Assembly: GCA_964016885.1 (NCBI GenBank)
Contig: OZ024751.1
Span: 33,604,001-33,668,000, forward strand
Source: Eledone cirrhosa
Taxonomy: Eukaryota
Direction: 5' to 3'
Length of the DNA: 64,000 bases
Shown in pieces: positions 8,487 to 56,615 of this stretch. Each line of letters starts with the position of its first letter. Positions within the stretch are counted from its first letter, which is position 1. The notes beneath the pieces were generated by a model. It had not been told where the DNA came from. It saw nothing but the letters and a program-made list of their open reading frames with translations, and searched no databases. The translations under genes and the position numbers were made by a program.

Positions 8487-8760
8487 AGTTTTGCGAGGAT
8501 TTTGATATGAAATCGTGAGTCGAAACAAATATTGTTATACTTGGGGAGGGTCATATTTGTGTAATATTGCCAGAATTAATAACAGAACACACTCACTGTT
8601 TGGTTGGTTTTCGCTTCTGTGTCTTTTATATCGGTTAATTTAATTTATTCAGAAAAGAAAGACACAGAAGCGAAAAGCGAAGACCAACCAAACAGAGAGT
8701 GTGTTCTGTTATTAATTCTGGCAATATTACACAAATATGACCCTCCCCAAGTATAACAAT
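8487..8760. mobile_element. Palindromic relic of a related Penelope family (~95-bp arms plus tail) in (TA)n
   Basis: Arms 8530-8625/8660-8760 end in ATGACCCTCCCCAAGTATAACAAT, nearly identical to the pLTR end at 39691-39715. The tail 8487-8530 resembles 39716-39758. Confidence 0.7.
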
Positions 8761-8954
8761 ATATATATATATATACACGTGTGTGTATATTTACATAATA
8801 CAATATACACACATGTTTCTGTGTATTCCTCATAGATTTCAATCTAATGTAGACACTTAAGATGTCTTTCAGTTCTATCTGTATTCTATGACCAAACACT
8901 ATTACGGAAGAAATATTAAAAGAAGTTTTCACTGAAATAGAAGTATGAGAAATT

Positions 8955-9460
8955 ATGTTACTATACTATAATGTTACTATACACTACTACACACCATAAT
9001 GCTACTATACTATATACTATACACTACTACTACAAACTATGCTACTATAATACTACTACTACAAACTATGCTACTATTATACTATAATACTACTACTACA
9101 CACTATAATACTACTACTACTACACACCACTATAATACTACTACTACTACACACCACTATAATACTACTATACTATAATGCTACTACTACTACTACACAC
9201 TATAATGCTACTATACTATAATACTACTACAAACTATAATGCTACTATACTATAATACTACTACTACTACACACTATAATACTACTATACTATAATACTA
9301 CTACTACTACTTCACACTATAATGCTACTATACTATAATACTACTATACTATAATACTACTAGTACACACTATAATGCTACTATACTAAAATACTACTAC
9401 TACTACTACACACTATAATGCTACTATACTAAAATACTACTACTACTATACTATAATGTT
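8955..9460. repeat. Degenerate (ACT/TAT)n tract
   Basis: Direct inspection. Confidence 0.85.
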
Positions 9461-9554
9461 ACTCTTATGTTTATCTTTCAGTTTTAAAAACTTCCAAATC
9501 TTTCGTTTATTCAACAATATTGTTTTAGCCACCAAAAGAGTCTATTGTAAATAT

Positions 9555-10305
9555 ATAGTGTATATAACAACCACACATATATAGTGTATATAACCACACA
9601 TATTTAGTGTATATAACAACCACACATATATAGTGTATATAACAACCACACATATTTAGTGTATATAACAACCACACATATTTAGTGTATATAACAACCA
9701 CACATATATAGTGTATATAACAACCACACATATATAGTGTATATAACAACCACACATATATAGTGTATATAACAACCACACATATTTAGTGTATATAACA
9801 ACCACACATATATAGTGTATATAACAACCACACATATTTAGTGTATATAACAACCACACATATATAGTGTATATAACAACCACACATATTTAGTGTATAT
9901 AACAACCACACATTTAGTGTATATAACAACCACACATTTAGTGTATATAACAACCACACATATTTAGTGTATATAACAACCACGCATATTTAGTGTATAT
10001 AACAACCACACATATTTAGTGTATATAACAACCACACATATTTAGTGTATATAATAACCACACATATTTAGTGTATATAACAACCACACATATTTAGTGT
10101 ATATAACAACCACACATATTTAGTGTATATAACAACCACACATATTTAGTGTATATAATAACCACACATATTTAGTGTATATAACAACCACACATATTTA
10201 GTGTATATAACAACCACACATATTTAGTGTATATAACAACCACACATATTTAGTGTATATAACAACCACACATATTTAGTGTATATAACAACCACACATA
10301 TATAT
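9555..10305. repeat. 26-bp minisatellite, ~29 copies
   Basis: TTTAGTGTATATAACAACCACACATA. Confidence 0.95.
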
Positions 10306-10339
10306 ACTATACGTTTATAAGCATGTGCACACAATGCAC

Positions 10340-53810: not shown

Positions 53811-53957
53811 CAATATAAACAGTCTTATAAATAAATAGATACGACATACGTTTCAATCGACTTGCATTTGGGAGGTTGATTTGGCAAATCAACCTCCCAA
53901 ATGCAAGTCGATTGAAAGGTATGTCGTATCTATTTATTTATAAGACTGTTTATATTG

Positions 53958-54023
53958 TATTTTGTCTGAAGAAGGCATAACATATTGTTAATATGATATC
54001 CCTGAAATATATATAATGAAATA
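53958..54023 (+). ncRNA. Type I hammerhead ribozyme in right arm of palindrome
   Basis: Stem I TATTTTGT/ATGAAATA, CTGAAGA, stem II AGG..CATATT-GTT-AATATG..CCT, GAAA, palindromic TATATA, AUA triplet. Confidence 0.75.
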
Positions 54024-54324
54024 AATATGGTTTTATAAATATAGTTTCCATTTATTTAATATCATAAATATACTCCAAATACTTGTTGAGTGCTTTTATA
54101 TCAGTTATAAATATTTACTCGTTGTTAACCCAACAATTTAAATATAACTTTCCATGTATATATATATATATTATACATACATATCCTTTTTTGTCGTAGC
54201 GCAAAGTTACGGGACATAAACAGACATAGAAAAGGTAAAATTAGATGCGAACACACACACATGTGTAGACAGAAACTGTCCAACACACACACACACACAC
54301 ACACACACACACACTGTATCATTA

Positions 54325-55468
54325 TTTACCATTTTTTCTCCAAAGAGGAGCCAGAACCAAATGGAAAAAATTGTAAATAAATAGTAAATAATGATACAAA
54401 TGGGACCTGCCCCTGATATAGGAGCAAATATTGGAATAGAATAGAAAGAACTAGGAATAAGGTTAATAGAATAAGCTCATGGTATGATAGCAATAAATAC
54501 CAGAGTGTAATGTTCATCAATACAACCCCTAGAGGTGAATTAGCTTACAAATTTAGAAGGGCCCTAGATAAACTTAAACTAAGTATTAAGATAGTAGAAA
54601 GACCAGGTACCTCCATAAAAACACTTATTAGTAATACATACCCTTTTCAAAGACCTCCCTGTATAGATAAGACATGCATAATCTGTAAACAACTAAGACC
54701 CAATATTAACTGTAAAACTAGAAACATAGTATATAGCATAAGATGTACTGAAGGACAATGTAAAGATAAGAATATAGTGTACATAGGTGAGATAGCTCGT
54801 AGTATAGGAGAACGATTAAGTGAACACTGGCGAGAACTTCAAGATAGAAAAGAATCATCAGTACTCCACCAACATGCTAAAATAGAACATAAGGGCAAAT
54901 TAGAGAACATAGAAATAAAAATAGAATTTACACACAGAAAAGACGCAATGTTTAGACAAATCACAGAGGCAATAAACATAAATAAACTCCAACCAAAATT
55001 AAATAGAAAACATGAATGGAATAGCAACATCACAACTTACAATTAAGGACAAAATGAAAACACACACACATAGAACAAACAACCAACCAGTAACATGTAA
55101 ATAAACAAATAAATAAACAAATAAAAACACACACAGACACCCGGATGTAACACATGCGCAAACTAAGCACACAACACACACAAAAACAAGATGGCGTAGG
55201 ACAGAACAAAGGAGAGGCACAAAACAAAAAAAAGAATCCCCAGTCACTGAAGAGGTCACAGAATGTGTGACGAAAGAACTTTGACAATATATGAACAACC
55301 GTCCGGTTATGGAACCAACCAACCAGCCGGAAATTTATAAATTTAATTTATAATAAATTGGAGTGAAAGTAACTAGTGCGTGTGTTTCTTATTGGCAACA
55401 TGACCCTCCCAAAGCATAATAATATCGGTTTCAACATAAAGAATCTTGCTAAACAAATTCAGAAACGA
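54325..55468 (+). mobile_element. Second copy of the same Penelope-like element (endonuclease, pLTR and tail)
   Basis: GIY-YIG ORF 54510-55046 near-identical to 37973-38587. Tail 55370-55468 matches 39660-39772. Confidence 0.92.
55243..55285 (+). ncRNA. Minimal hammerhead-like motif in Penelope pLTR
   Basis: GTCA-CTGAAGA-G-GTCACA/TGTGAC-GAAA-GAAC-TT-TGAC. The paralogue at 37734-37776 (minus) has GAAT in place of GAAA. Confidence 0.65.
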
Positions 55469-56464
55469 TATATAGATATACATATATACATATATATATA
55501 TATACAAGTAAATAATCGAGAATCAGAATCTCGGCCCACGAAATAATTGTTTCTACTTTAGGCACAAGGCCAGCTATTACCCAGTGCATTACTGGTACTT
55601 TAAAACAATCTTCGACATGTGTGGCAGAGGGCTCAATAGTTTGGATGAACCAGAGCTATAACTATCGTTAAAATACCAACACATAGAGACGATGCCTAGA
55701 TCATTCGCACAGCCGAAAAAAACGACCAGGAAAATTCGGGTCGCTCAAATAATAAATTAATAAATTAATAAATTAAATGATACTTATATATACGCGCAAG
55801 GTACTTCTACAGCTGTTAAATAGTGCGAGAGAAGACAGCCCAGCATGGTGCCGGGTGGCGGGAAAACACCCTGGGTTTAAGTAAGAGGTTAAAGTCACCA
55901 TTCCAGTAATGAAGGAGGTTTACAAAGCTTGGATTGGAAATAAATCCTCCATCTTACTCTTGTGGTGTAAACAGGGGAAAAGTCCGAGTAGAGATAAAGA
56001 TATCAAATGTTAAGATATAGGAGGACATTAGGGTGAAGTTGGAGTCTAACTTTACATCAACAAATAAAGTAACTAGAAGTCCGAGTAGGGACAGTAAAGA
56101 TATATATATGTATATATATATGTTTGTATGTGTGTGTGTGTGTATATATACAGTATGTATGTATGTGTGTATATATGTATGTTTGTGTGTGTGTGTATGT
56201 TTACATTTATGTGCGTGTATATATACAATATTAAATATACATGTAGGTATATATATATATATATATATATATATATATATATATATATATGTGTGTGTGT
56301 GTGCGTGTCATATTTGAGATAATCGCAAACAATAGTAATATTTAATGAGAATAAATTTAACTTACGAAGGTCGGCTGAAAAGTTCATATACAGACTTGTA
56401 TATATATACACACGCACACATATATATATATATATATATATATATATATATATATATATATATA

Positions 56465-56615
56465 TGTTGGAGGTGAGTTTTATTGTAGCACAATAAAGCG
56501 ATGCAAATATCGGATAAGTAGCACTCTACAATTTGTAGGACTGGAGTATAAATAATATAAGATCAAAAGATGGTTAAAATACTAGGAACTCTTTTAACCA
56601 TCTTTTGATCTTATA
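56465..56615. mobile_element. Shorter copy of the 49878-50160 family (tail plus 24-bp inverted repeat) in (TA)n
   Basis: Reverse complement of about 50045-50155, followed by an inverted copy of TATAAGATCAAAAGATGGTTAAAA. Confidence 0.75.

Follow-up and report, generated by a model that had tools for sequence, protein, structure and literature searches.

This study concerns a 64,000-nt stretch of the Eledone cirrhosa genome (GCA_964016885.1, contig OZ024751.1, positions 33,604,001 to 33,668,000, forward strand), here termed the window, in which short palindromes recur within (TA)n microsatellites and are confirmed, at the level of sequence, as 3′ stubs of coding, autonomous, endonuclease-containing (EN+) Penelope-like elements (PLEs) rather than miniature inverted-repeat transposable elements (MITEs). 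Self-BLAST of the window with the microsatellites masked recovers inverted pairs, each within (TA)n, for all of the palindromes named in a preliminary description of this DNA. These include the four asymmetric ones placed at 8487, 49878, 53702 and 56465 (self-inverted matches 8533-8758, 49883-50063, 53705-54063 at 99%, and 56560-56611) and a possible one at 29584-29686, where an inverted pair is indeed present (29585-29685) but is symmetric with both arms tail-less, unlike most copies of its family (D). The same layout had been reported around a coding Penelope copy at 37590-39772, and a 53-nt arm pair (37592-37644/39661-39713) does surround that copy.

Where at least four unrelated families had been claimed, the window elements sort into six (Table 1), namely A/P, B, to which two of the inserts belong, C, D, E and F. 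Some of these are relatives of one another: RT identity between B and C is 54%, the 8487 element of family A is a sister of the coding P element (80% identity), and the 49878 and 56465 elements belong to one family (94.6% identity).

Table 1. Penelope-like inserts of the window, with the composition of each.
Element	Positions	Strand	Composition
Family A, two-armed	8488..8758		Tailed arm minus 8650-8488, tail 8488-8532; tail-less arm plus 8658-8758
Family E, single tailed arm	27183..27395	+	5′ end ~3 nt downstream of the proposed RNA start; core of U3-A8 type at 27227
Family D	29584..29688		Both arms tail-less; junction within hammerhead stem II, so only the ribozyme 3′ half
Family P, two-armed	37592..39771		Long tail-less arm minus; short tailed arm plus (39660-39771)
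Family F	39941..40103		Inverted 27-nt piece of the tail, and a tail-less arm; long-stem-II hammerhead, core 39969
Family B (Hydra-type)	49883..50159		Tail-less arm minus, bearing the hammerhead (core at 49975); tailed arm plus 49995-50159
Family D, single decayed arm	51560..51609	+	
Family C (Hydra-type, young)	53704..54154		Arms ~180 bp; hammerheads 53802(-) and 53966(+); tail 54064-54154
Family P, single tailed arm	54314..55467	+	EN frame at 54423-55046 and hammerhead core at 55247; tail ends at 55467
Family B, second insert	56466..56611		Opposite orientation to the first; very short arms; without hammerhead

Coding sequence adjoining the palindromes

For each query, genome searches returned between 286 and 4,356 first-look candidates, of which 40 were scored. 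Linking the arm families to full-length PLEs, as the preliminary description had proposed, reached coding sequence upstream in longer copies of all six, in the form of reverse transcriptase (RT) and/or GIY-YIG endonuclease (EN) frames. Both are present in 2/2 extended loci of family A, EN in 3/3 and RT in one of family B, and EN in 3/4 of family C, for which RT was seen in separate loci; the family C tail also continues into a 450-amino-acid Hydra-type RT frame in 2/20 pattern matches. Family E has a 753-amino-acid RT and GIY-YIG frame in 2/4 extended loci, and its pseudo-long terminal repeat (pLTR) and tail precede 19/20 open reading frame (ORF) starts, several with an inverted arm. In family F, EN is found in 2/3 extended loci, broken by other inserts, and in family D a frameshifted EN lies in the inverted arm of 1/20 loci, with RT matches nearby in both families. 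Inverted arms occur in every family, and partial tandems are present. The suggestion that the palindromes are truncated or non-autonomous Penelope products is thus borne out as regards truncation, but the sources are autonomous and the truncation is not random. A sequence search of the PDB gave no match, and a homologue search with the family C endonuclease among longer proteins scored 0/495 candidates. In family E a long extra reading frame lies upstream of the RT frame and starts ~20 nt after the tail (locus L188, reverse strand); the first 40 scored copies of the post-tail region are 99-100% identical, which makes this family young.

Motifs read from the translations relate the families to known PLE clades. 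Families B, C, D and F have a CxCX5C linker, no CCHH and (TA)n insertion, with DKT in B and C only, and the family B RT aligns by eye with Hydra-1_Obim as printed in the supplement of PMC8557442. By these motifs the four are Hydra-type. A, P and E carry a CX4CXXC linker, and their C-terminal EN contains CCHH. By these motifs the two families A/P and E would be Neptune/Nematis-type, two clades that share a CX2-5CxxC linker with CCHH and that an RT tree is needed to separate. The palindromes are new members of an already published PLE layout.

Ends, target and abundance

In every family the outer ends fall at two fixed positions, one where the tail ends and the other, internal, 44-97 nt upstream of it, giving tails of 44 nt in A, 67 in E, 78 in F, 79-80 in D, 91 in C and 97 in B. 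A longer tail form of family A (57 nt), whose 3′ end is a third one for this family and lies 13-14 nt past the usual position, again at a TA step, occurs in 10/30 loci (L061-L090). As expected of retrotransposition, which had been set against a MITE origin on the question of arm length, both lengths and junctions vary between copies, the arms ranging from 27 to >1,200 nt. Where both ends of a family locus can be classified, 83 inserts are mixed, having one tailed and one tail-less arm, while four are tailed at both ends and one at neither. The A, B, C and E queries contained the tail, so family F, whose query was without it, is the fair case for this count, and its loci comprise 16 mixed inserts, one with both arms tail-less and none with both tailed. 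The proposal that (TA)n is the target also holds, since (TA)3 follows the tail end in 162/196 cases compared with a background of 10.5%.

An even sample of 60 evenly spaced 10-kb stretches (600 kb) was drawn from the 3.0-Gb genome, leaving out three chromosomes and the small contigs. Its 117 arms make up 90 insertions, with 27 head-to-head pairs and 63/90 single-armed, and no head-to-tail tandem retrozyme arrays occur among the sampled inserts. Among the pairs, 23 are mixed, one is tail-less at both ends, none is tailed at both ends and three are unclassified (23/24 classifiable, p=1.5e-6). Extrapolation gives ~135,000 pairs (bootstrap 75,000-205,000) in ~450,000 insertions, in line with the high density that had been anticipated. 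A de novo palindrome scan of the same 600 kb yielded 86 short palindromes covering 21.6 kb (3.6%), of which 64 bear (TA)3 at an end. Only 32 of the 86 belong to the studied families, hence further families exist. Palindromes of other families, flanked by TA and lying outside the seven references used here, were seen at L227:5763-5893, L246:8990-9108, L253:6467-6585, L267:4186-4301 and elsewhere, and several of these families contain hammerhead boxes.

Junctions and a two-start insertion mechanism

Exact mapping was possible for 38 clean junctions of 66, the other 28 being dropped for more than one mismatch and inserts with longer filler being left out. Microhomology at the clean junctions averages 1.9 vs 0.7 nt (p=2e-8) and is 5 nt in the family B insert at 49883-50159. 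Among these 38 junctions, 35 are distinct, which indicates that palindromes are rebuilt at each insertion and not copied as units; some junctions of B and C recur, each of them 3-4 times, and the both-tailed insert L058 shares its junction with mixed ones. Head-to-head junctions join arms of the same family in 225 cases and of two families in two (not de-duplicated). The latter, L009 and L203 (P with B and E with D), may stem from the use of two RNAs during a single insertion or from loss of the DNA that separated two adjacent inserts.

Each of the six internal starts coincides with an alternating TA run of 3-7 nt (background fractions 0.02-0.40), ATATATA follows the family E tail ~20 nt before the putative ATG in 18/20 ORF-linked copies, and ATGTA follows the family C tail. 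We infer that RT priming at the internal starts is aided by TA pairing, a case that is weak for C. A PLE protein has been shown in vitro to cut and extend both strands, with two internal RT starts that bound the tail (PMC11167929), and the stubs fit this two-start model. The palindrome is best read as two head-to-head copies of a short PLE 3′ end within a TA repeat, most probably produced in a single insertion by two separate reverse transcriptions, a reading to which a probability of about 0.8 is given. The GIY-YIG nuclease would nick both strands of (TA)n, and each nicked 3′ end would prime cDNA on element RNA, in one case where the tail ends and in the other at the internal start, 44-97 nt further upstream, with TA matches of 2-7 nt in the RNA as an aid. 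Microhomology end-joining would then link the two cDNAs, each of which would have stopped early or run off the 5′ end of the RNA, where pLTR transcription begins. A variant with a leading and a trailing RT on one RNA, in which the tail-less arm is always ahead, is ruled out by the arms of the 83 mixed pairs: the tail-less arm reaches further 5′ in 31, the tailed arm in 30, and the two are equal within 3 nt in 22.

The 5′ edge of the stubs

Three families (B, D and E) show a preferred edge. In loci not chosen by the family's own query, the distance between the 5′ stop and the tail end is 207-218 nt for 16/28 family E arms. The limit, at 216 nt, lies 29-30 nt downstream of a TATAAAA that 28/31 long copies keep. 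The proposed +1 is placed at C|A in E and about 258 nt from the tail end in B. Stops at -2..+3 of the proposed +1, compared with -20..-3, number 10 vs 0 in B (n=16), 37 vs 11 in D3 (n=89) and 11 vs 2 in E (n=27). The family D edge is the A of TTAGTY, which is kept between diverged subfamilies and presumably resembles an initiator. A G precedes the D edge, as a copied cap might leave, in 17/45 arms (p=0.04, confounded by the partner arm), and is absent in E. A template beginning at the hammerhead cleavage site is ruled out, as the 5′ ends of no family pile up there.

The Penelope promoter lies in the pLTR, and an internal promoter can drive downstream transcription (PMC2377424). Run-off copying to the RNA start is a plausible cause of the hard edge in B, D and E, with a strong RT stop as the alternative. 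It can be proposed, as a tentative extension held at somewhat less than even odds, that the stubs are paired run-off cDNAs of a "strong-stop"-like kind, for which a PLE dimer would prime from both nicked TA strands via short TA motifs at its two internal starts, close to the mRNA 5′ end, copy to the capped start and have its ends joined, so that more than 100,000 hairpins have been laid down. If this is true, a by-product pathway may be a main source of the long perfect double-stranded RNA (dsRNA) behind the heavy adenosine-to-inosine (A-to-I) editing in this animal group. The run-off idea, the hard 5′ edge and TA-matched RT starts were not found in the literature searched, a body outside which most subscription papers and Repbase lie.

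Several observations weigh against the two-start and run-off proposals. The family loci are best BLAST matches and hence biased, the coding links of D and F are one and two interrupted loci, respectively, and Pfam support is below cut-off or absent, including RVT_1 and GIY-YIG in family E (E=4e-4, below cut-off). The 5′ edge is indistinct in C and P and lacking in A. The internal TA match of C is 3 nt, which 40% of background positions also show, and that at its tail is 2 nt. Finally, arms of one insert are barely more alike than arms of different inserts, with no difference in A, so that either one RNA or two may have served as template.

Alternative origins

The palindromes are short, TA-flanked and present in many copies, and certain junctions recur, all of which could suggest MITEs, that is non-autonomous DNA transposons with terminal inverted repeats and a TA target. 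Such elements would have fixed termini of the DNA-transposon kind that do not adjoin PLE sequence; the ends here are asymmetric, arm lengths vary, 63/90 sampled insertions are single-armed, and the termini are continuous with RT/GIY-YIG ORFs and partial tandems, coding links that refute this origin and leave it a negligible chance. A different route to an inverted arm, proposed in PMC3846280 in a passage on palindromes at inverted junctions, is that one cDNA folds back and primes itself as a hairpin. Microhomology at the junctions is in keeping with this, as is the frequent likeness of arm extents (22/83 within 3 nt), which a common RNA 5′ end also explains. It is improbable, because fold-back of a tail-primed cDNA cannot yield a tail-less arm that reaches further 5′, as 31/83 do and as in the window P insert, where a 2-kb tail-less arm faces a 112-nt tailed one, and because fold-back from the internal start cannot add a tail.

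The short forms could also be a non-autonomous class of their own, resembling short interspersed nuclear elements (SINEs) or retrozymes, in which short pLTR-promoter RNAs of any copy are mobilised in trans and stubs serve as sources. The abrupt 5′ limit of three families (B, D and E) would follow, the best D1 matches are nearly all short, the pLTR promoter is internal (PMC2377424), and bioRxiv 2026.07.22.740005 derives retrozymes from pLTRs. As a rival it is doubtful, though less remote than self-priming: the distinct junctions show that palindromes are not copied as units, both-tailed L058 has a junction in common with mixed inserts, the sampled inserts hold no head-to-tail retrozyme arrays, and the family E TATA box falls outside the short copies. 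As regards the source of the template, it is compatible with paired insertion from two starts.

Hammerhead ribozyme motifs

A structure descriptor finds type I hammerheads at 49975(-), 53802(-), 53966(+) and 55247(+), compared with one match in total in 10 shuffles of the window, and these account for the motifs previously placed at 49913, 53745/53958 and 55243. Those placed at 27219 and 39967 correspond to family-conserved variants below the descriptor threshold that were read from the sequence, at 27227(+) and 39969(+). The former, a U3-A8 core variant (TTGAAAA...GAAA CCGG TA) found in 28/30 family loci, belongs to a single arm (27184-27395) and not to a palindrome; the latter has a long stem II. 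The idea that several palindromes carry hammerheads holds for the 49883 and 53704 inserts, but the 8487 and 56465 elements have none, the family A insert (8488-8758) ending 3′ of its family's hammerhead, and the 29584 element has the 3′ half only. An Rfam scan of the window gave no hammerhead among the 150/178 matches listed, only miRNA-like chance matches there. In the 600-kb sample there are 45 descriptor hammerheads, compared with 0, 1 and 0 in shuffles and 0 in the reversed sequence, from which a genome total of ~225,000 motifs is extrapolated.

The hammerhead core is intact in 326/371 copies (seven references), and stem II pairs show compensating A-T/G-C changes. Among the 371 copies, shared variants, which are not independent events, amount to 0.44% in the core vs 2.7% elsewhere, and rare variants to 0.71 vs 0.99% (p=0.09). 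This pattern suggests that the core is selected in source elements and decays about neutrally after insertion, so that the hammerhead would be a passenger in the stubs; a core conserved between subfamilies yet decaying after insertion was not found in the literature searched. The predicted fold of a transcript through the family C palindrome is one long 180-bp hairpin of -287 kcal/mol, which would sequester the hammerhead and make it unlikely that stubs are free ribozymes.

Other features of the window

The long minus arm of the P insert at 37592-39771 comprises an RT fragment (39658-39050), a copied host segment, EN and a hammerhead (37775) in which GAAA has become GAAT. The host segment breaks the RT-to-EN frame (38690-39050 vs 53452-54313) and was copied from the flank of the other P element, 16 kb off; the two window P copies are ~99% identical in the middle, compared with 88-93% to other copies, and the host-segment junction is present in 1/40 scored matches. 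Local gene conversion or a template switch is the likely cause. The copied segment provides an empty site (38819-38878) for the family C insertion at 53704-54154, which sits in a TA run. Two small palindromes (17321-17382 and 21065-21122) match none of the studied families. A dispersed ~190-bp repeat, SINE-like in appearance, has more than 10 window copies (6392-6580, 6842-6962, 19728-19883, 28467-28655, 30979-31167, 48199-48377 and others), and large, near-perfect tandem arrays lie at 35952-37359 (78-bp unit, 18 copies) and 41411-44317 (8-bp-based unit, ~2.9 kb).

Significance and comparison with known elements

The layout, the (TA)n bias, the hammerheads and the U3-A8 cores are already published, and what is added here is a quantified one-tail rule, the 5′ edge, the TA-matched starts and the abundance. 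The young stubs, which number in the thousands and come from three lineages of PLE, constitute a natural record against which the in vitro two-start model can be tested; they locate candidate promoters and start sites, suggest that the hammerhead core is selected during mobilisation, and are liable to be mistaken in annotation for miRNA hairpins or MITEs. In octopus, hyper-editing and an exceptional capacity to form hairpins have been reported, with the repeat source unnamed in the available text, together with heavy Penelope editing in a lizard (PMC5625713), and in a cephalopod the stubs are a concrete candidate for such a source. On octopus PLE hammerheads or their editing, nothing on point was found in the literature searched (most subscription papers and Repbase being outside its coverage).

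The closest known systems are EN+ PLE insertions (PMC8557442, PMC3846280), which share the inverted 5′-truncated pLTR copy, the one-sided tail, partial tandems, (TA)n bias, microhomology junctions and a pLTR hammerhead, as the preliminary description had noted for the hammerhead and the inverted partial pLTR. Published tails are 30-40 nt compared with 44-97 nt here, and unlike those insertions most inserts here are 100-500 bp without coding sequence, their one-tail pairing is quantified and they have a preferred 5′ edge. How tandem and inverted copies form and why PLEs favour microsatellites are open questions according to PMC8557442. The same paper lists an octopus Hydra family with a hammerhead (Hydra-1_Obim), and the Hydra clade as described there shares the CxCX5C linker, DKT, an RW-type motif, CxxC/CxH around E/N, lack of CCHH, the hammerhead and (TA)n. 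Unlike Hydra-1_Obim, there are four Hydra-type families here, with very high copy number and hammerheads that differ from the listed one.

Poseidon PAc in vitro (PMC11167929) likewise cuts and extends both strands, with two internal RT starts that bound the tail and a tail at the ORF start, but its starts are not homologous to the target while those here carry TA matches, and its hammerhead is dispensable in vitro while the core here is conserved between subfamilies. Minimal PLE hammerheads (PMC4209133), which show low in vitro activity, resemble those here in a palindromic short helix III, an extra base before stem II, the U3-A8 variant and opposite-strand pairs 100-700 bp apart, mostly from truncated PLEs; the estimated number is higher here, and stem II is lengthened by inserts in D and F. 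Non-LTR retrozymes (PMC7229834, bioRxiv 2026.07.22.740005) are also short, non-coding, hammerhead-bearing and PLE-derived, but they are head-to-tail tandems that make circular RNA, while the inserts described here are head-to-head or single and carry tails.

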